From NCBI GenBank assembly GCA_963695875.1, contig CAVOID010000003.1:288001-352000 (forward strand): a stretch of DNA of 64,000 nt, read 5' to 3'. The notes under the pieces are model-generated. The model ran no database searches, was not told the DNA's origin, and saw nothing but the letters and a program-made list of their open reading frames with translations. How positions within the stretch are numbered: position 1 is the first letter of the stretch; every line of letters starts with the position of its first letter. Positions 3,812-49,556 of this stretch are shown here, piece by piece. Position numbers and translations under genes: made by a program. The DNA is from an uncultured delta proteobacterium (GTDB taxonomy: Bacteria; Desulfobacterota; Syntrophia; Syntrophales; UBA2185).

Positions 3812-4726
3812 CTAGTCTGAGACTAATGCATGTACAAAACAGAAAAGGGCCAACAGTTTCCCAGCAGAAGAACCGTCATTGAGGGAAAGATACTTTCTTT
3901 CTATTTCATTTTGCGCAAGATGCTCTATGATCTTATAGCCGCGTTCTAATAAAAATGATCCTATATTTCCTTTCTGTATTCCAAAGTGGGTTGGCTCGCC
4001 AGGATAATTTGATTTCATCATCTCCCTTACCTTCTTCACGCGATGATCGTTCTGCAGCTCAGGCGACAAAGAAGCGTAATCAAAGCAAATGGAGCTGCCG
4101 ACAGGTGAATTCATTTTTATGGTGCTCAGGGTATCATCGATAACCTTGGCCGATAGGTAATATGTAACTCCTTCCCAAACAAAAAGTACCTGTCGGTTTT
4201 TTATGAACCCTGCCTTAGCCAGGACGTCTCCAATGTTGTCCGTATTGAAGTTGATGGAAACAAAAACGAGTTGCTTCGGCATGGGAACCTTTGCTTGATA
4301 GAGTAATTCCTTTTTGCGCTGCTGCGTCGGTTGACTATCTAACTCGAAGATCCGCGTGTCCCTGATAAGGTCTTTGAAACGATAAGGACGGCTGTCATAG
4401 CCTGCGCCCATGAATACGATCTGAGGAATGTTTTCCCGCAAAGCTTGTTCTACAATATCGTCAAAAAAAGCCGTTCGCGCAATTAGGAATTCATACATCC
4501 CAGGGATGATCCTTTTTTTAATTACCGATTCCCTGATGGCGGGATCTCTCAACGCGTTTTTGCGATCTTCGGTAAGGAATATTTCTGCGAGGTAGTCAGG
4601 TCCTCTAATCTCTATTCTCTCATCAAGCGCCGCAAGGGCGCGCAACGTGGCTGCTCCCATCGCTGTTTCCGATGGTTTATGTTCAACGGACATCTTGCTC
4701 GTATCTAATTCCTGCTGCTCGGACAT
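3812..4726 (-). CDS. SAM-dependent methyltransferase, LCM (leucine carboxyl methyltransferase)-like family
   Basis: SETAMGAATLRA, ARTAFFDD, QIVFMGAGYDSR, FELD, WEGVTYYL motifs. Confidence 0.88.
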   Translation of the reverse strand: MSEQQELDTSKMSVEHKPSETAMGAATLRALAALDERIEIRGPDYLAEIFLTEDRKNALRDPAIRESVIKKRIIPGMYEFLIARTAFFDDIVEQALRENIPQIVFMGAGYDSRPYRFKDLIRDTRIFELDSQPTQQRKKELLYQAKVPMPKQLVFVSINFNTDNIGDVLAKAGFIKNRQVLFVWEGVTYYLSAKVIDDTLSTIKMNSPVGSSICFDYASLSPELQNDHRVKKVREMMKSNYPGEPTHFGIQKGNIGSFLLERGYKIIEHLAQNEIERKYLSLNDGSSAGKLLALFCFVHALVSD

Positions 4727-4801
4727 TACTATTCCTGTTGTGCTACATTCGGCACTGAAATTCCTTATAGTTAAGTATACTGCCCCTGGAATTTCATATT
4801 C

Positions 4802-5341
4802 TCAATCTAATTTTTCCAGGTCGGCTTCGGCATTCAGGATAAGGTTGATATGCTTCCCCACAGTGAATCCCCCGGGGAATTCATAGTTCCACGTCATCCC
4901 GAAAGCTTCCCGTTGAAGGTAAGTTGTAGCGGCAAATCCCATAGTAGTATAAGAACCGGTTTCATCTGTGAAATAGGTTGGGCCGAAGTATTCAGCATGA
5001 AGGAGAACCGGCCTTGTGACACCGTGAAGTGTGAGGTCACCATGAACCTTGAAGCGGTTGCTTCCGGCCACTTCGCTTTTAGTACTCTTAAAAAGAATAT
5101 GCGGATATCTTTCCACATCGAAAAAATCGGGACTCCGGAGATGATTGTCTCTGGGTTCTACGCCGGTGAAAATGCTGGCTGCCTCTATCTTGATTTCCAT
5201 GGATGTACTGGCTATATCCGACGCGTCAAAGTTGATAAAACCGGAGATATTGTTGAACTGACCGTGAACATCGTTGATCATCATGTGGCGTACAATGAAG
5301 TGAGCCACTGTATGATCTTCATCAATAGTCCATTTTGCCAT
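4802..5341 (-). CDS. YceI-family lipid/polyisoprenoid-binding protein
   Basis: WTIDEDHT..FIVRHMMI..VHGQF, RDNHLRSPDFFDVERYP, GDLTLHGVTRPV. Confidence 0.92.
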   Translation of the reverse strand: MAKWTIDEDHTVAHFIVRHMMINDVHGQFNNISGFINFDASDIASTSMEIKIEAASIFTGVEPRDNHLRSPDFFDVERYPHILFKSTKSEVAGSNRFKVHGDLTLHGVTRPVLLHAEYFGPTYFTDETGSYTTMGFAATTYLQREAFGMTWNYEFPGGFTVGKHINLILNAEADLEKLD

Positions 5342-5594
5342 AGGTAAACTCCATTATAATAATTGACAAAAGTAAACGGCCTTCAAAATCAAGGCCATCA
5401 AGTGTGAAGTATATATTGTAATATACATCTTTTCTAAAATGTTTGGAAGTGAGGACTTCAGTCTATGATAGATGACTTTCTTATAAAGTTTTCAAAATTA
5501 GGTTTTCATGAAAATTAAAGAATGCATATGATCTCGATGGAGTTTACATCCGCGACTGTGGGGGCCAGGCCGACGGTTGGATTCTCGTGTCCGA

Positions 5595-43531: not shown

Positions 43532-43583
43532 AAGAAGAAGCTTTGCAATTTTTCAAAGGTTATGAATATAACCGGAGGTGGTT

Positions 43584-44885
43584 ATGAAAATCTGGGACGC
43601 CAAATATGAATGTATGCCGCGGGAAGAGCTGGAACAGCTTCAACTGGAAAGGCTGCAGGCAACTCTCAACAGGGTTTATAAAAATGTGACCTTCTACCGC
43701 AAGATGTTTAACGAATCGACGATAGTACCCGAGGATATGCAGGCCCTTTCCGGTCTGGCAAAGATACCTTTTACCACCAAGGAAGACCTGAGGATGAACT
43801 ATCCCTACGGTATGTTTGCCGTGCCCCTTAGAGAGGTTGTCCGGGTACATTCATCATCAGGGACAACGGAAAAACCTGTCGTCATCGGCTATACAAAAAA
43901 TGACATCAAAGCCTGGACGAACCTGGTAGCCCGCGTTATGACGGCGGCCGGGGTCACCCGCGACGATATGGTGCAGATTACGTTCAGTTACGGCCTTTAT
44001 ACGGGAGCCTTCGGGTTTCATTACGGGGCAGAGGCAATCGGCGCAAGCGTGATACCTACAGGCACGGGCAATACGGAAAAACAGATAATGATCATGCAGG
44101 ATTACAAAACAACGGCCCTCGTCTCCACGCCGACTTACGCCATAACCCTGGCGGAGAGGATGGAGAAGCTTGGTGTTAACCCGAAGGGACTATCGTTGAG
44201 AGTGGGACTTTTCGGGGGAGAACCGCTGTCGGAAGCCATGCGCGGGGAGATTGAAGCGAGGCTCGGCATCACTGCCACGGATAATTACGGCCTGTCGGAA
44301 ATTATCGGCCCGGGAGTGGCGGGGGAATGTGAATATAAATGCGGCATGCATATCTTTGAAGACGCCTTTATCCCGGAGATTATCGACCCGCTGACGGGTA
44401 AACAGTTGCCAGCCGGCAGTGTGGGAGAGCTTGTTTTGACCACCCTCACGAAAGAGGCCTTTCCCTTGATCCGTTATCGTACCGGAGATCTTACTTCTCT
44501 TGAGTATGACCAGTGCAAATGCGGGAGAAGTATTATCCGGATGAATAAGACTGTGGGACGTTCTGATGATATGCTCATCATCAAGGGCGTTAACGTGTTC
44601 CCTTCACAGATAGAGACTGTATTGATTGCAATTGTGGGAACAGAACCGCATTATCAGATCGTGGTTGACCGGAAGGGCGCTCAGGATTTATTGGAAGTAC
44701 ATGTTGAGGCCGCGGAAGGTACGTTCTTCGATGAAATGAAGAGGCAAAAAGCTTTTTTAGAGATGGTCGAAAAAAAGATAAGATCGGTGATCGGAGTAAC
44801 TGCCACAGTGAAACTGGTTGGGCCTAATACGATTTCCCGTCATGAAGGTAAGACGGGAAGGGTTGTGGATAGGCGTAAGATTTAA
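43584..44885 (+). CDS. paaK: Phenylacetate--CoA ligase family protein
   Basis: PFTTKEDLR.NYPYG, HSSSGTT, YGLSEIIGPGV, RYRTGD, GRSDDMLIIKGVNVFPSQIE. Confidence 0.88.
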   Translation: MKIWDAKYECMPREELEQLQLERLQATLNRVYKNVTFYRKMFNESTIVPEDMQALSGLAKIPFTTKEDLRMNYPYGMFAVPLREVVRVHSSSGTTEKPVVIGYTKNDIKAWTNLVARVMTAAGVTRDDMVQITFSYGLYTGAFGFHYGAEAIGASVIPTGTGNTEKQIMIMQDYKTTALVSTPTYAITLAERMEKLGVNPKGLSLRVGLFGGEPLSEAMRGEIEARLGITATDNYGLSEIIGPGVAGECEYKCGMHIFEDAFIPEIIDPLTGKQLPAGSVGELVLTTLTKEAFPLIRYRTGDLTSLEYDQCKCGRSIIRMNKTVGRSDDMLIIKGVNVFPSQIETVLIAIVGTEPHYQIVVDRKGAQDLLEVHVEAAEGTFFDEMKRQKAFLEMVEKKIRSVIGVTATVKLVGPNTISRHEGKTGRVVDRRKI

Positions 44886-44889
44886 TCCC

Positions 44890-44960
44890 TTCGGAATCCA
44901 GTAAACTGTCTGGATTGATCCGGAATCCAGACGCCTTCCCCGCGAAAGCGTGAACCATTA
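44890..44960. repeat. REP-like palindromes after paaK
   Basis: GGAATCCAG...CTGGATT, CCGGAATCCAG, CCCGCGAAAGCG. Confidence 0.4.
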
Positions 44961-45211
44961 AAACTCCTGGACTTCTTCTTAAGCCCTGTCTGATCCTCAC
45001 TTTCAGCTACTTATCTACGCCCATTGTTTTACTAAGAACTTATTAATAATTCATTGAAAGCATCAAGCGTGACCGATTCGTTTATGTAGCACTTTTCACC
45101 CCGTTATGCTCAAGAGCGAGCAATGAAAAAATGAAATACGCCGCTTATTGGCAACACCTACAACTGCTCAGTGGTGGGCAATCTCAGAATTGATGATTAT
45201 GGATTGAAAGA

Positions 45212-45268
45212 GAGTAACGCCATGATGAGCCGCGACTGTAAGGAGTCTGCTCCATCATGTGGTTAGCA
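45212..45268 (-). other. attC recombination site 1 (57 bp)
   Basis: Minus strand TGCTAAC-CACAT-GATGGAGC...GCTCATC-ATGGC-GTTACTC: R''-5-L''(8 nt, extra base)...L'(7)-5-R'; 13 nt after the HNH stop. Confidence 0.85.
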
Positions 45269-45281
45269 GGTCCTCTATCAT

Positions 45282-46301
45282 TCAATCAAGATTCCGGTAC
45301 CATTCCAAAAAGTCCGGATCTTCTGTGTTGATGCCAACCCCAAAACAGAAATTTCTTTTCTTGCGAATCCTCTTGAATTCTTCCAACCCCGGATATGGGA
45401 TTCTAACCCGTTCCTCCCCCTTGTATTCAACACGATGAGTTCTCCACGACATATCCATGTAGGGACCAGACTGGACAACAAGCAAGCCTTCATCTAGACG
45501 AAAGCTTCGGTCTACGAATTGCCGCACTCTGTCGCATATGAAATTGGCCGCTCGCGTCAGTTCCAATACCAGGTCTTCTACAAGCTTGACGTGGAAGATG
45601 AATTCTCTGAACAGAGTTTCATACCTTTCCTCGTCCCACTCAGGAATATGGTAGAACTTTCTTGTCCAATATACGTCGTTGGTCTTTTCCGAGTATCTGT
45701 GGAAGGTATTCTGAAAGTCCTGCAAAACACGTCTGAAGTTTTCAAAGGAGTCTTCAAGCTCCGGGTATCGTTTCGGCCAGATTCTTGAGAAAATCCATTC
45801 TCTGAGGGATGACAGGCTTTCATCCACATCAACCCATAAAGTGGGATGATCGCCTCCGAGGATATGGGAGGTCCATGCCTTCCACTTCGCGACGTGTGCT
45901 GATTTCAGCCACGTGTCAACGTAGGTGGCGTAACGTTCGTCGTCGTGTTGTCTTTGCTGATCATAGGTAGTTAACGACTCCCGGACCCAACCCTCATGCA
46001 AAGCCTTTATTTCCTTCAGGTACTCGATTGAGTACATATGGTACTGATCGTCAATTATCTTGTGGTGTATTCTGCACAGCAGTATAAGATTGTCGTATTT
46101 GTTAAGCTTGTCTTCTGGGATCGCCGGGTCTCCTCTTGGACCATCAGAACTCTCGGCGATAATGTGACACTCTTCTCCAATCAACGATTCGTCATCTGTT
46201 TCGGTGGCATCCATGACCAGCTCTTTGCGACAGTCAGGCATTGCACAGCGGTTGCCGGAACGCCCCCACAACATCTTGTGTGTCTTAAGCGTAATGCTCA
46301 T
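45282..46301 (-). CDS. Gene cassette: N-terminal HNH endonuclease plus unrecognised C-terminal domain
   Basis: LWGRSGNRCAMPDC, GEECHII...GPRG, NLILLCRIHHKIID. Confidence 0.85.
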   Translation of the reverse strand: MSITLKTHKMLWGRSGNRCAMPDCRKELVMDATETDDESLIGEECHIIAESSDGPRGDPAIPEDKLNKYDNLILLCRIHHKIIDDQYHMYSIEYLKEIKALHEGWVRESLTTYDQQRQHDDERYATYVDTWLKSAHVAKWKAWTSHILGGDHPTLWVDVDESLSSLREWIFSRIWPKRYPELEDSFENFRRVLQDFQNTFHRYSEKTNDVYWTRKFYHIPEWDEERYETLFREFIFHVKLVEDLVLELTRAANFICDRVRQFVDRSFRLDEGLLVVQSGPYMDMSWRTHRVEYKGEERVRIPYPGLEEFKRIRKKRNFCFGVGINTEDPDFLEWYRNLD

Positions 46302-46353
46302 ATATCTTCAGTCCTTGTCTGCTAACATTTAATATACCAAACTGGTCGAAGGA

Positions 46354-46409
46354 GAGTAACAACGGGGTCAGCCGGGTGTTTGCGCATCGGCTGCACTGAC
46401 CCATTGGGC
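46354..46409 (-). other. attC recombination site 2 (56 bp, R'' variant AAT)
   Basis: Minus strand GCCCAAT-GGGTC-AGTGCAGC...GCTGACC-CCGTT-GTTACTC. Confidence 0.72.
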
Positions 46410-46462
46410 TATCATCTTTTTTGCTACATCTCCTTCTTTTGGACTTGGTCACGCATCAATAT

Positions 46463-46834
46463 TTAGTGGTTCTCAAAGGCTGTTTTCAATTCGGTTTCTG
46501 AGGGAGGGTATATGTTGTACCAATCGTGCTTATAGACTCGCTCCCTTTCCTTGTCAATCACCGAACGATCAAGAGGGATGTCATGACCGGGGGTTCCTCG
46601 CTTTTTCCCCACCACAATAGAGGTGAGAGCAGGAAGCTTGTTGTCAAGACAGTAATAGGCAATATGTCCCAGAATTTTGTCGAGTACTCCTTGAGCTTTC
46701 TTCTTGTACATAAGTACCGAAAGTTCTTCATATGTAGTTGTCTGTCTTTTTATGGCCATTCCAACAAGGATTTGCCATGCCTGAACGGCTCTTGCCGCAT
46801 GTTGTGAAGACGGGTTAAATAACTTCATGTTCAA
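46463..46834 (-). CDS. Gene cassette: small hypothetical protein, putative winged-helix-like DNA-binding fold
   Basis: GAGGGGG RBS; TTYEELS...LGHIAYYC...LPALTSIVV.K..GTPG pattern; bracketed by attC sites. Confidence 0.75.
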   Translation of the reverse strand: MNMKLFNPSSQHAARAVQAWQILVGMAIKRQTTTYEELSVLMYKKKAQGVLDKILGHIAYYCLDNKLPALTSIVVGKKRGTPGHDIPLDRSVIDKERERVYKHDWYNIYPPSETELKTAFENH

Positions 46835-46887
46835 TCCCCCTCAGATTAAACTCGTAATCTTTAAGCCACTCCCAATTCCTCACTTGA

Positions 46888-46945
46888 GTACAACAAAAAG
46901 ATCACCGGCCCGAGGAACGAGGACAGGTGGATTTATTGGTTATGT
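46888..46945 (-). other. attC recombination site 3 (58 bp)
   Basis: Minus strand ACATAAC-CAATA-AATCCACC...GGTGATC-TTTTT-GTTGTAC; the TAA stop of the upstream ORF lies inside R''. Confidence 0.82.
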
Positions 46946-47814
46946 GCTATCTTTCCTCACCAAACGCTTGGCGTCACAGATCAGTGCCACCGCCGCATCA
47001 GGACCGCGCTTAATATCTTGCATCTCAATCATTCGCTCAGCAACCCACACCGACGCTCTGCCAACTGTGAATAGTGTTCCAGTGAGAGCAGACCAGACAG
47101 GCCCGCCGAGAGTGCACCGATGCATACGCCGGCCCCCACGGATATTAATCCTTCCCAGCTAAAGATCGAACTCAATGCTCCCGTCGTTGTCTTGAGCCCA
47201 TGTTTGCGAATCGACCACTCATAGTCTTCAATCCTGCGCGCGATAAGATCCCTTGCATGTTCAACAGACTGTGCCGACAAACTGTATTCAAGCCAGAGCC
47301 TAAGCTCCCGGTACTTTCTTATAGCTTCCTCGTCGCTACGAAACTCGAGTATTTGTTCCCAGGATACGTGGTCTTCGATGATTTCGGGCAGATTTTCCAG
47401 CGCGGCTTGGTAGACCAAGGTGTTGCCGGATGGATAATCTAACAAGTAACGTTCCTGCCTTTCGTAGACCGGCGTGACGGAATACCCAGATAGCCTATAG
47501 CACTCCACTCTAACTCGAACGAAAACCTCATCGAAAATGTTGGACATATCATCCGCCGTAAACGCCGAAATAGGCCTTTTTAATTTAGGGCTGTTAAAAA
47601 GGAGTTGTTTTTTTATTGTCTCAAATTGCGCTTCAAAATATTCGTCGATTTTGGGGAAATCGAATTTAACCCATGATGGGATATTGTCGCGACGGTCCCA
47701 CCAAGGCGGAACATAGATACGGTCAAACATTAAGGCTGCTCTCTTGGTGACTCGCGGTTGTGGATATGCGTATCTCTCGCCTGGCACCTGTATGCTATAT
47801 TTTGGGTCGCTCAT
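46940..47814 (-). CDS. Gene cassette: hypothetical protein with Gly-rich hydrophobic C-terminal hairpin (probable frameshift near 47110)
   Basis: ORF 47029-47814 joins ORF 46940-47125, whose stop sits in the attC R'' box. Confidence 0.7.
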
Positions 47815-48312
47815 ATGATCACACTTAATATACGAACTTCGTAAAACATGTAAATTTGTTTAATACTGCTCTGCAGGAGTTGCTTCCAGAGTTTCCAGAA
47901 GGCATTTTTGAACAAGGACAGCTAATGAACACTCGCCAGTTACGCTTGTTCATTTCAACGTGAAATCTACATCAATCATTCTTGATATGTCTATTATTTC
48001 TTTCAGGAAGGATGGCGCGTCCTTTAAGCAGAAAAAACAAATCTTCAAGATTTGCACGTTTCAACCCGCATTCAATGACATCGTCTGGTGGTCCCTCTTA
48101 CTGCTTTGTATTTTGAATTTGTTTACCCTTTCTTTGTCGTTGGTTATCTCTTATTAGGAAGAAGTTAGGCCTTATGCAGCTTTAGTTATTAAGTGATAAT
48201 AGGAAAAATAATGCTTGATTAAAATAAAATCTTCAATTAGTTAAAAACATTATGCAAAAAATCATACCATACTGTATATATGTATAACTTTTAAAGGAAT
48301 GGAGAATGGCAA

Positions 48313-48687
48313 GTGGTAGAAATTGATTTTGAGAAAGGCAAAGGACTTTTACCGGTTATCGTTCAGGATTATGAGACAGGAGAAGTTCTGATGCTTGCCT
48401 ATATGAATCGCAAGGCATGGCTGGAAACACTGGAGACAGGGAAAGCTACATACTGGAGTAGGTCGAGAAATGAGCTGTGGGTTAAGGGAGAAACTTCAGG
48501 TCATGTCCAGATTGTCAAAGAAATCTTAGTCGACTGCGATTCTGATACCCTTTTGCTGAAAGTCCAGCAGGTAGGCGGTGCTGCTTGCCATACAGGGTAT
48601 AAGTCATGCTTTTATAGAAAAGTTACGAATGGAAAGACGGAGATCATAGGAAAACCTGTTTTTAAGCCGGAGGATGTATATAAATGA
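48313..48687 (+). CDS. hisI: Phosphoribosyl-AMP cyclohydrolase
   Basis: [37 protein letters not shown]. Confidence 0.96.
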
Positions 48688-49556
48688 AGAAATTGAAGCT
48701 GGGAATACCGAAGGGAAGCCTGGAAGCCAAGACGGTGGACCTTTTCAAAATGGCCGGCTGGCGTATTTCATACGATGAGAGGAGTTATTTCCCTGATATT
48801 GATGATGAGGAGATCTCTTGCACGCTTGTGCGTGCGCAGGAGATGTCAAGATATGTGGAGGATGGGACTCTGGATCTGGGTCTTACGGGGAAAGACTGGA
48901 TTATCGAGAATGACTCAAATGTCGTCGAAGTCCAGGATCTGATTTACTCGAAGGCATCGGTAAGACAGGCACGGTGGGTTCTGGTAGTCAGAGAAGATTC
49001 CCCTATCCGGGCTCTCGAAGACATGGAAGGAAAGAGAATTTCGACGGAGCTGGTCAAATTTACGGAAAGGTATTTCAGGGAAAGGAATATCAATGTTCAT
49101 GTCGAATTTTCCTGGGGTGCAACGGAGGCAAAGGTTGTTGAGGGCCTCGTAGATGCCATTGTGGAGGTTACTGAAACAGGAAGCACGATTAAGGCCAACA
49201 AATTAAGGATAGTTCATGAACTGATGAAGACCAATACGAAGCTCATTGCCAATACCGATGCATGGGATGATCCCTGGAAACGAAAAAAGATAGAGCAGAT
49301 CAGGACACTGCTGAATGGTTCATTGCTGGCCATGGGTAAGGTAGGTTTGAAGCTGAATGTGTCCAAGGAGAATCTCGGGCGGGTTGTTATCCTCCTGCCA
49401 TCTCTGAAGGCGCCCACGATATCCGGGTTATACTCGAATGACTGGTATGCGGTTGAGACAATAGTGAGCGCGAACATCGTGCGGGATTTAATCCCCCTGC
49501 TTCAGGAGGCTGGAGCCGAAGGTATTATTGAATATCCCCTGAATAAAGTTATCTGA
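48684..49556 (+). CDS. hisG: ATP phosphoribosyltransferase, long form
   Basis: [38 protein letters not shown]-terminal regulatory domain. Confidence 0.96.

Follow-up and report, generated by a model that had tools for sequence, protein, structure and literature searches.

Between paaK and hisI, the chromosome of this uncultured bacterium carries three co-oriented minus-strand genes, each followed by a site that resembles the attC recombination site of an integron, and the locus raises the question of what kind of element stands there and how it came to do so. We analyzed the window (the whole stretch of 64,000 nucleotides, on contig C3) within a metagenome-assembled genome of 2.86 Mb that is 82.6% complete. 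In our reading, the 3.3-kb insert is very probably a chromosomal integrase-less integron cassette array (CALIN) of three cassettes, which a long-form integron integrase (IntI) would have captured and which now appears to be decaying. The array is a real CALIN, an element of a kind already known. As CALINs are common and well described, the element itself is unsurprising; new here are two attI-core-like motifs, a frameshifted ORF3 and a 64-nt module that starts exactly at the attC1 crossover. The setting is as follows:

43578..44885, plus strand: paaK, left neighbour of the insert
44886..48202, minus strand: the lineage-specific insert as a whole, bounded by paaK and by the promoter region of hisI

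On the minus strand, the array runs from attI-like core 1 through the ORF3 cassette, attC3, the ORF2 cassette, attC2, 16 nt like the start of module B, attI-like core 2, the HNH cassette and attC1 to module B and repeat A.

The first step is to ask whether the three sites are attC sites at all. The layout of an attC site is R''(..AAC)-spacer-L''...L'-spacer-R'(GTT..), in which L'' exceeds L' by one base. On the minus strand, attC1 (45268 to 45212) reads TGCTAAC-5-GATGGAGC...GCTCATC-5-GTTACTC, with L''/L' pairing at 7/7 positions plus one extra base, and attC3 (46945 to 46888) reads ACATAAC-5-AATCCACC...GGTGATC-5-GTTGTAC, with pairing at 6/7 plus the extra base. The layout of attC2 (46409 to 46354) is the same and its L boxes agree with the consensus CAGCCGAT...CCGGCTGA, while its R'' is GCCCAAT instead of ending in AAC. 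The same layout recurs, extra base included, in 22 sites that adjoin integrases in relatives, with 94% of cells paired. Geometry alone is nevertheless weak evidence, because a script for strict attC geometry fits 676 places in the genome (0.118 per kb per strand), 12 of them in the window.

We therefore give more weight to two covariance models, both with filters off and run on both strands of the whole window (128 kb): R1, from 22 attC sites in IntI-adjacent arrays of 12 genomes, and R2, from 96 attC sites of relatives, with no site in either taken from the window. Both are our own models of one attC subtype, and the E-values given here are rough.

45212..45268, minus strand: attC1; R1 32.0 bits (E 1.8e-6), R2 26.1 bits (E 3.3e-4); crossover G|TT at 45218|45217
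46354..46409, minus strand: attC2, degenerate; R1 13.3 bits (E 0.41), R2 13.2 bits (E 0.63); rank 3 in the window both times
46888..46945, minus strand: attC3; R1 28.7 bits (E 1.7e-5), R2 27.0 bits (E 1.9e-4); stop codon TAA of the intact ORF3 inside R''

The top three matches in the window are, with each model, exactly the three sites that the preliminary description had named as an integrase-less attC cluster with cassettes, and its coordinates and geometry for them proved correct on re-reading. The next match scores 10.6 bits with R1 and 10.3 bits with R2, and the remaining 10 geometry matches in the window do not score with R1. With both models attC1 and attC3 are significant; attC2, taken alone, is without significance over the whole window. 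A sequence-only HMM run on the whole genome also recovers the three sites (E 0.0027, 0.071 and 7.2). Where this could be examined, the models are strand-specific, with 96/96 matches in 38 loci lying on the cassette strand of their locus, and attC matches are co-oriented with ORF2 homologues in 29/29 cases and with ORF3 homologues in 25/26. The 22 seed sites of R1 were selected for complementary L boxes, under a rule to which attC1 and attC3 also conform. In the IntI-adjacent array of the same-genus genome G001 neither model finds a match, so the models cover one attC subtype and their negatives elsewhere carry little weight; a direct-repeat search in the arrays of the two congeners (G001 and G002) gave no common attC repeat. 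An Rfam scan of 44000-49000 (E <= 5) returned a chance mir-278 match only, and no attC family was noticed there.

Could the sites instead be ordinary gene-end hairpins, such as terminators or REP-like repeats, that fit attC by chance? The abundance of the bare geometry would allow it, as would the single-strand DNA folding energies, which are ordinary against shuffles (z -1.5, -0.7 and +0.8). We give this explanation hardly any credence: models derived from integrase-adjacent attC sites put the three at the top of the window, each of the three genes is carried as a cassette elsewhere, and one cassette boundary is common to two other genomes, G113 and G032. All three belong to the attC type that integrons of this order of bacteria use.

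The second step concerns the genes between them. For the ORF2, ORF3 and HNH families alike, the same gene is found bounded by attC in unrelated arrays, as is expected of integron cassettes.

45282..46301, minus strand: gene of cassette 3, 339 aa, with an N-terminal HNH nuclease domain (Pfam HNH_2, E 1e-4) and an uncharacterised C-terminal domain of ~220 aa
46319..46326, minus strand: G|TTAGCAG, which marks the 5' boundary of the HNH cassette and is exactly complementary to R'' of attC1
46463..46834, minus strand: gene of cassette 2, ORF2, 122-123 aa, no family, weak AGT/ATL-like fold; attC-bounded in other loci
46940..47814, minus strand: gene of cassette 1, ORF3, a distant relative of DUF6236 with a C-terminal hydrophobic hairpin rich in glycine; the ORF as called spans 47029-47814, and the conserved frame of the tail 46940-47110

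The boundary of the HNH cassette bears out an argument of the preliminary description: GTTAGCAG (46326-46319) is exactly complementary to CTGCTAAC (45269-45262), and a unit that opens with G|TTAGCAG and closes with an exactly complementary R'' has the form taken by a circularised cassette. Homology to the HNH gene of G032, which adjoins a TrlF-family ATPase and has no attC match there, begins exactly at the GTTAGCA boundary; the G113 alignment reaches ~11 nt further upstream, with 7/11 matches. In G113 (contig C4), the HNH homologue has 91% amino-acid identity, is the first cassette, ~650 nt from a 449-bit IntI match, and has an attC of 37.8 bits behind it, whose R'' is TGCTAAC and whose R' is GTTAGCA. 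A more distant homologue in G043 (30% identity) has a 35.6-bit attC.

The ORF2 family extends across many phyla at 50-90% identity, and its homologues have an attC match within 30 nt downstream in 5/48 other loci, one of them in a Luteimonas array of 14 matches. For ORF3, a match lies within 60 nt downstream of the homologue in 10/36 loci, three of the ten being near-identical copies. ORF3 is frameshifted near 47101-47112, such that the alignment with its homologue P0002 changes frame, residues 1-238 of P0002 falling in one and residues 236-286 in the other (98% identity); the frameshift may be an assembly error. The conserved C-terminal frame ends at TAA 46942-46940, within R'' of attC3, and an ORF stop inside R'', as noted in the preliminary description, thus holds for the intact reading of ORF3 and not for the called ORF, which stops at 47029. 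ORF3 and the AbiGi cassette of contig C10, both 261 aa long, are unrelated; kinship between two 206-aa ORFs at C10 and C11 was likewise rejected.

The third step is the integrase. According to the available text of its 2016 description, a CALIN comprises two or more attC sites that share a strand and lie under 4 kb from each other, with no integrase nearby (PMC4889954). The three sites here are spaced 1.09 and 0.48 kb apart on one strand, with R1 and R2 serving as surrogates for the model of IntegronFinder, and searches of contig C3 with TIGR02249, PF00589 and, by tblastn, the IntI of G001 were all blank. The reported absence of a tyrosine recombinase from the window stands, since the genome has 6 PF00589 matches and contig C3 has 0. 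Across the genome, the best TIGR02249 matches break up around model positions 188-242 and reach 82 and 66 bits, where the cut-off is 265 bits, and tblastn with the G001 IntI finds 27%-identical Xer-like genes only; an intI gene with the IntI-specific insertion, which would mark a complete integron, was not found in this genome. IntI scores above the cut-off in 111/301 genomes of the order, both congeners included. An IntI may sit in the missing part of the assembly; the proposal that the locus is serviced in trans found no backing, as no IntI was detected in the assembly at its 82.6% completeness.

The array could be the remnant of a complete integron that once stood at this locus and lost intI by deletion, and it does keep attI-like cores. 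Loss of the integrase is one proposed origin of CALINs in the available text of PMC4889954, and the genome's own main array, on contig C10, also has no IntI, while the congeners' arrays with the same downstream DNA-alkylation-repair gene adjoin one. Two observations make such a deletion improbable in our judgment: both congeners are empty at paaK-hisI, their integron standing elsewhere, and contig C3 gives no intI pseudogene signal by HMM or tblastn. In the reading that we favour, the cassettes would have been taken up by a long-form IntI of ~430-470 aa, the type that both congeners encode, with the bottom strand of attC, in its folded form, recombining with attI-type sites; the array would later have parted from its own integrase, or outlived it, and may be mobile only with IntI in trans. 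Its attC sites, at 13-32 bits versus 48-73 on C10, suggest decay, and further probable signs of it are the R'' of attC2 without AAC, a head junction without G|TT and the frameshifted ORF3.

The surroundings of the insert bear on how it arrived. Both same-genus genomes have ~158 nt between paaK and hisI and lack the insert altogether, and homology picks up again near 48203. The three genes are accordingly no invariant syntenic block, such as the preliminary description had said would speak against a cassette array. It had also called the interval a hotspot, which the relatives do not show: apart from the empty congeners, genome G004 has an unrelated 2.5-kb insert at paaK-hisI that shows no attC match, no attI-like motif and nothing in common beyond the hisI promoter region, so that cassette turnover at this position is not supported. 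The ends of the insert carry three elements:

45075..45163, no strand assigned: repeat A, dispersed, ~88 nt, tail of the insert; copies in this genome at C3:218464, C4:49581 and C11:223722
45155..45218, minus strand: module B, conserved, ~64 nt, starting at the attC1 crossover
47945..48113, no strand assigned: head repeat, dispersed, upstream of the array; copies in this genome on C11, C5 and C4, and in relatives

Module B has seven copies in 6 genomes; every one begins at (G/A)TTAC, the sequence before it being unrelated, and at 4/7 an R1 attC match ends at the module start. Public contigs from 4 peat runs carry homology to module B or to attC1, one or the other, and diverge at 45215-45219, at the G|TT of attC1, an indirect hint of recombination there. 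In these public runs, whose best containment was 0.19 of sampled words and which included no RNA run among those listed, no contig crosses the insert, and the HNH body, the ORF2 body and the frameshift site are uncovered. Repeat A is present in many relatives at 77-93% identity; none of repeat A, module B and the head repeat was found in 42 IntI-adjacent or related loci.

These repeats raise the possibility that the array came as one block, by homologous recombination or transposition through its end repeats (repeat A and the head repeat), in which case its units would still be integron cassettes and the locus itself no integrase target. Of the alternatives considered here we find this the least implausible, and still unlikely. 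It would account for the second cluster of this genome, on contig C4, where repeat A and a relative of the head repeat also flank two attC sites with an attI-like core variant at the head, and for the fact that the insert takes the place of the congeners' entire intergenic spacer rather than of a single GTT. Against it, neither a transposase nor a target-site duplication nor a terminal inverted repeat could be seen at the insert, repeat A also occurs at places without attC, and the head repeat with an attI-like core was rejected as a conserved platform, the core being present in 0/3 further copies (L065, L073 and L074). The junctions within the array also speak against it, in that an attI-like core lies immediately before each of two cassettes, an arrangement that suggests the work of an integrase:

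46326..46337, minus strand: attI-core-like motif 2 (GTATATTAAATG); its final G is the G of G|TTAGCAG, the HNH cassette start
47822..47833, minus strand: attI-core-like motif 1 (GTATATTAAGTG), 7 nt upstream of the start codon of ORF3; the motif is not followed by an intact G|TT
47827..47854, minus strand: sigma-70-like promoter match TTTACA-16-TATATT, overlapping motif 1; 10/12 consensus positions

The 12-mer family GTA[TG]ATTAA[ATG]TG has 4 copies in the genome, and 2 of them lie in the array, each directly before a cassette. The motif occupies the attI position at 7 long-form IntI loci (at 6 of these, 531-583 nt from the edge of the IntI match) and is absent from 8 short-form IntI loci; on contig L131 it stands in front of an ORF3 homologue. 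At 11/12 positions the two motifs of the array match the long-form attI-position core, the head copy being without G|TT; the comparison for motif 2 includes G001 (L038), where the attI core lies 143 nt before the IntI start codon and motif 2 agrees at 11/12 positions. The junction at motif 2 can be read as a GTATATTAAWTG|TTAG site. From position and similarity, we infer that the two motifs are putative attI cores. Expression of the first cassette would probably start from the promoter-like element that overlaps core 1, a prediction to be read beside a promoter scan that overall does not rise above shuffles (4 found versus 6.1 expected).

A bolder extension of capture by a long-form IntI is that module B and the attI-like cores serve as functional docking points around the chromosome, with copies on C3, C4, C5 and C11, at which one such IntI, resident or visiting, builds several small satellite arrays at a distance from the main integron; we regard this as doubtful. 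If it were true, these CALINs would be active outposts of the integron, not debris, and the hybrid attC1, whose R'' is common with the G113 cassette while its core is different, would record recombination at R''.

Several described systems come close to the array. Like the CALINs of PMC4889954, whose available text reports that attC similarity is particularly low in them, it has three co-oriented attC sites without intI nearby and cassettes of unknown function, and its attC sites are mutually dissimilar and low-scoring. Unlike them, it retains attI-core-like motifs at two places, the head and mid-array, and ends in a 64-nt module that is also found behind the terminal attC in other genera; neither feature was found mentioned in the available text, which states that most integrons have no known attI site. 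Insertion of cassettes at attG sites in the genome, with the SALINs and small CALINs that accompany it, is covered in the available part of Loot et al. (bioRxiv 10.1101/2022.09.11.507474), and offers a similar route to small integrase-less clusters away from the integron, such as the single attC sites on contigs C5 and C14 of this genome; the junctions here differ in resembling attI cores of the local type, not a bare GWT. Complete integrons of the same order (for example G113:C4, G001:C462, G238 and G263) have the same attC subtype and attI core motif, and G113 the same HNH cassette, whereas no intI was found here in the window, the contig or the assembled genome.

What the cassettes do can be proposed for one of them. 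The HNH protein, which has 2202 homologues, matches PDC-M68A (1e-34) and HNH effector profiles of the CBASS and Shedu types in PADLOC, over residues 2-118 only, and is most likely a stand-alone nuclease of the defence-effector type; an Atlas search with its C-terminal domain gave a best score of 0.88, to clusters without a name. ORF2 yields nothing at E <= 0.001 in Foldseek, with the top 18 rows being alkyltransferases at E ~1, and its predicted structure weakly suggests a small protein resembling the alkyltransferase DNA-binding fold. ORF3, for which a fold search from a weak model (pLDDT 65) without the C-terminal 80 residues gave no chain at Z 5, appears to be a protein with a hydrophobic tail. 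Neither ORF2 nor ORF3 matches a PADLOC defence model at E <= 0.1, and a defence role for them would be a guess. The proposal that the cassettes carry defence genes is thus sustained for the first ~115 residues of the HNH protein and not for the other two. Integron cassettes that encode phage defence are the subject of the available part of Kieffer et al. (bioRxiv 10.1101/2024.07.02.601719), and the HNH cassette would resemble them as a single-gene nuclease with a defence-effector-type domain; the array differs in that ORF2 and ORF3 match no defence model.

The order to which this bacterium belongs is mostly uncultured, associated with sediment and peat, and rich in integrons, as the proportion of sampled genomes with IntI indicates. 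For the long-form IntI group, the array yields a candidate attI core, GTAKATTAAWTG|TTAG. Its three cassette families (the HNH nuclease, the ORF2 protein and the DUF6236-like protein), each also present in arrays of other genomes, are candidates for function screens.

By the definition in PMC4889954, the three-ORF block of the studied genome (G000; 2.86 Mb in 16 contigs, 82.6% complete) is a true CALIN, attC sites grouped together with no integron integrase, which confirms the reading of the preliminary description. One attC-like site follows each of the three ORFs, and on re-reading the DNA we found the sequence and geometry of these sites to be as that description states. The genes of the locus are as follows.

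Genes of the locus (window positions)
43578-44885, plus strand: paaK, one bracket of the three-ORF block
45282-46301, minus strand: HNH gene, 339-aa product with an N-terminal HNH domain
46463-46834, minus strand: ORF2, 123 aa
47029-47814, minus strand: ORF3, 261 aa
48313-48687, plus strand: hisI, the other bracket

Because the paaK-hisI gap is only 158 nt in the congeners G001 and G002, we take positions 44886 to ~48202 to be a lineage-specific insert. In G004, from another genus, the gap holds an unrelated 2.5-kb insert (G004:C29:9851-12356; locus L022 1743-4358) that encodes a 298-aa acyltransferase-like ORF, gives no match with either of our attC models (R1 and R2, below) and, apart from the hisI promoter region, has no sequence in common with the window. 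paaK and hisI do not adjoin each other in the family's more distant members. The preliminary description suggested comparing this interval for cassette turnover; these comparisons demonstrate presence versus absence of the array, but not turnover at the locus.

Geometry alone is weak evidence for attC. Scripted, the exact geometry of the preliminary description (..AAC separated by 5 nt from an L'' of 8 nt; then an L' of 7 nt separated by 5 nt from GTT; 6 or more of the 7 L pairs formed, plus one extra base) matches 676 places in the whole genome, or 0.118 per kb per strand; 12 of the matches are in the window, attC1 and attC3 among them; the folds of the three sites are no more stable than those of shuffled sequences. 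We therefore built a positive control from relatives' integrons. In array-side DNA by their integron integrase (IntI) genes, the geometry rule found clear attC sites that resemble one another and lie on the strand expected, and 22 of these from 12 genomes, none from the window, formed the seed alignment A1, in which pairing extends to 94% of cells (partly a product of selection at the L boxes, but not at the four inner pairs). The covariance model R1 was derived from A1 and searched against the entire window with filters off.

R1 matches in the window (R1 and R2 were built in this analysis and are not IntegronFinder's; E-values are rough)
45212-45268, minus strand: attC1, 32.0 bits, E 1.8e-6
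46888-46945, minus strand: attC3, 28.7 bits, E 1.7e-5
46354-46409, minus strand: attC2, 13.3 bits, E 0.41

The next best window match with R1 reached 10.6 bits. R2, built from 96 R1 matches at 38 loci with window sequence excluded (all 96 on the cassette strand of their own locus), gave 26.1 bits for attC1, 27.0 for attC3 and 13.2 for attC2, followed by a match of 10.3 bits, so that the proposed sites hold the top three window scores with both models. As the remaining ten geometry-rule matches received no score, the models do not merely re-find geometry. Taken on its own attC2 is weak, with AAT in place of AAC in R''; its L boxes agree with the consensus (CAGCCGAT...CCGGCTGA).

The cargo of the array is cassette cargo. 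ORF2 has 480 relatives, mostly ~122 aa and, among those listed, 63-93% identical, with 50 genome loci across many phyla; an attC match begins no more than 30 nt after the gene in 5 of 48 searched loci (L082, L086, L088, L093 and L107, with L093 and L107 being dense arrays), and all 29 attC matches at ORF2 loci are co-oriented with the gene. For ORF3 (37 relatives, typically 285-300 aa), 10 of 36 metagenome loci, including the near-identical copies L139-L141, have an attC match beginning no more than 60 nt past the gene, and in four of them it begins at the very next base; 25 of 26 matches are co-oriented.

The search for relatives of the HNH protein gave 2202. The copy encoded at G113:C4:2860-3876 has 91% amino-acid identity to that of the window. 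The gene lies ~650 nt from an IntI match (449 bits, 4530-5468), divergent to it, and has after it an attC scoring 37.8 bits (R'' TGCTAAC, R' GTTAGCA). The two cassettes are 85% identical at the nucleotide level, and their homology starts just before GTTAGCAG and continues through R'' (CTGCTAAC; window 45262-45268; locus L177), directly after which it stops; the L''-loop-L' cores of attC1 and the G113 attC are unrelated. Related HNH genes therefore have different attC cores joined at R''. From these alignments attC1 looks like a hybrid. Homology to the HNH copy of G032 begins exactly at GTTAGCA and, since with both relatives it begins at or just before this sequence, the earlier argument for a cassette boundary at the head of the HNH cassette is sound.

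From the crossover onwards, attC1 is followed by module B (window 45155-45218), a conserved sequence of ~64 nt containing the inverted repeat CAACTG..CAGTTG. All seven copies (six genomes, four genera) begin (G/A)TTAC with unrelated DNA upstream, the R1 attC match ends at the module's start in four of them, and in several genera the left edge is the exact G|TT crossover of the preceding attC. The other copies are at G000:C5:119366-119427, G004:C119, G018:C192, G040:C49, G007:C1 and G017:C162; a 16-nt B-like start also follows attC2. Contigs from four public peat metagenome runs, which are short, come from other organisms and were matched at 90% likeness, match either module B or attC1, with divergence at 45215-45219, a pattern that fits recombination at G|TT in nature. 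Repeat A (45075-45163) lies on one flank of the array and a head repeat (47945-48113) on the other; both are short dispersed repeats, with many, mostly intergenic, copies at 75-93% identity in this genome and across the family. Both may be MITE- or REP-like, and repeat A has a weak terminator-like hairpin.

As first described, there is no intI or other tyrosine recombinase near the array, with none found by TIGR02249 or PF00589 on contig C3. Genome-wide, the best TIGR02249 scores were 82 and 66 bits, on other contigs and interrupted around the IntI-specific region; the six PF00589 matches all lie on contigs other than C3, and tblastn of the G001 IntI recovered just Xer-like genes at 27% identity. 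Of 301 genomes sampled in the order, 111 have a TIGR02249 score above the cut-off, G001 and G002 among them, and the IntI open frames form two size groups, ~330-360 aa and ~430-470 aa.

The 12-mer GTATATTAAATG (46326-46337), whose last base is the G of G|TTAGCAG at the HNH cassette start, shares 11 of 12 positions with the stretch that precedes the first G001 cassette, 143 nt ahead of the start codon of IntI. The same motif occurs 531-583 nt from the IntI match edge at six further long-form loci (G238, G263, G147, G075, G012 and G098). It was missing from that position in G002, G060 and G115, and from 8 short-form loci; at the attI position, GTAKATTAAWTG|TTAG belongs to the long size group only. 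The family GTA[TG]ATTAA[ATG]TG has just four copies in the genome. The second, GTATATTAAGTG (47822-47833), precedes the start codon of ORF3 by 7 nt, overlaps a promoter-like TTTACA-16-TATATT and has no GTT after it; the metagenome ORF3 homologue at L131 has the motif at the same place before the gene. We read the 12-mers in the window as putative attI-core remnants. An orphan attI-like site, GTATATTAATTG|TTAGAC, at G000:C11:219967 (locus L178 3968) includes ~35 nt similar to the attI region of G098, with neither an IntI nor an attC match within 6 kb; downstream are plus-strand ORFs, the first acyltransferase-like, and a repeat A copy ~3.7 kb on.

The main array of the genome is at G000:C10:75566-78138 (locus L059 9566-12138), with four attC sites of 48-73 bits and a weak fifth, each immediately downstream of an ORF on the plus strand (149-261 aa; one is AbiGi-like). 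At its head are Hsp33 and split Pif1-like helicase genes but no IntI, and the DNA-alkylation-repair gene downstream is shared with G001 and G002, where it comes after their IntI-linked arrays. The integrase of the ancestral integron seems to have been lost, or to be unassembled. A second integrase-less cluster (G000:C4:49581-53036; locus L063 4582-8037) has two minus-strand attC sites (R2 37.9 and 30.3 bits), ORFs of 433, 104 and 343 aa, and the attI-like core variant GTGTGTTAATTG|TTAT at its head; like the window array, it has repeat A beside it, along with a head-repeat relative on its flank. It adjoins a HepT/MNT-like gene pair. Further attC matches are on C5 (two) and C14 (two or three).

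Of the defence cargo originally proposed, a role for the HNH protein is plausible, while ORF2 and ORF3 are unsupported. Residues 2-118 of the HNH protein match PADLOC PDC-M68A (1e-34), CBASS-type HNH effectors and SduA; its C-terminal ~220 residues gave no named match. The G032 homologue (G032:C61; locus L021 3-4350; 80% amino-acid identity) is directly upstream of a gene for a 1022-aa TrlF-family PHP/ABC-type ATPase (NF045780, 651 bits), possibly forming a candidate two-gene defence pair, and no attC match was found at that locus. The ORF2 structure model (pLDDT 80) has O6-alkylguanine-DNA alkyltransferase/ATL proteins as its best Foldseek rows, but at E ~1. ORF3, with a hydrophobic glycine-rich tail and no match in the fold search, is distantly related to DUF6236: matches at E <= 1 were obtained with 15 of 23 family members, of which the best (2.3e-5) is below the cut-off. 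Compared with every close homologue, ORF3 carries a frameshift near 47101-47112, a spot covered by no public contig; the homologues' last 51 residues are encoded in the other frame, which ends with TAA at 46942-46940, within R'' of attC3. Because this downstream frame is 98% identical to the homologues, the frameshift stems either from decay that is very recent or from misassembly.

Possible origins of CALINs are discussed in PMC4889954 and bioRxiv 10.1101/2022.09.11.507474, and a CALIN is in itself an already known kind of element; what is unusual in the window array is solely its attI-like cores, module B and the hybrid attC1.
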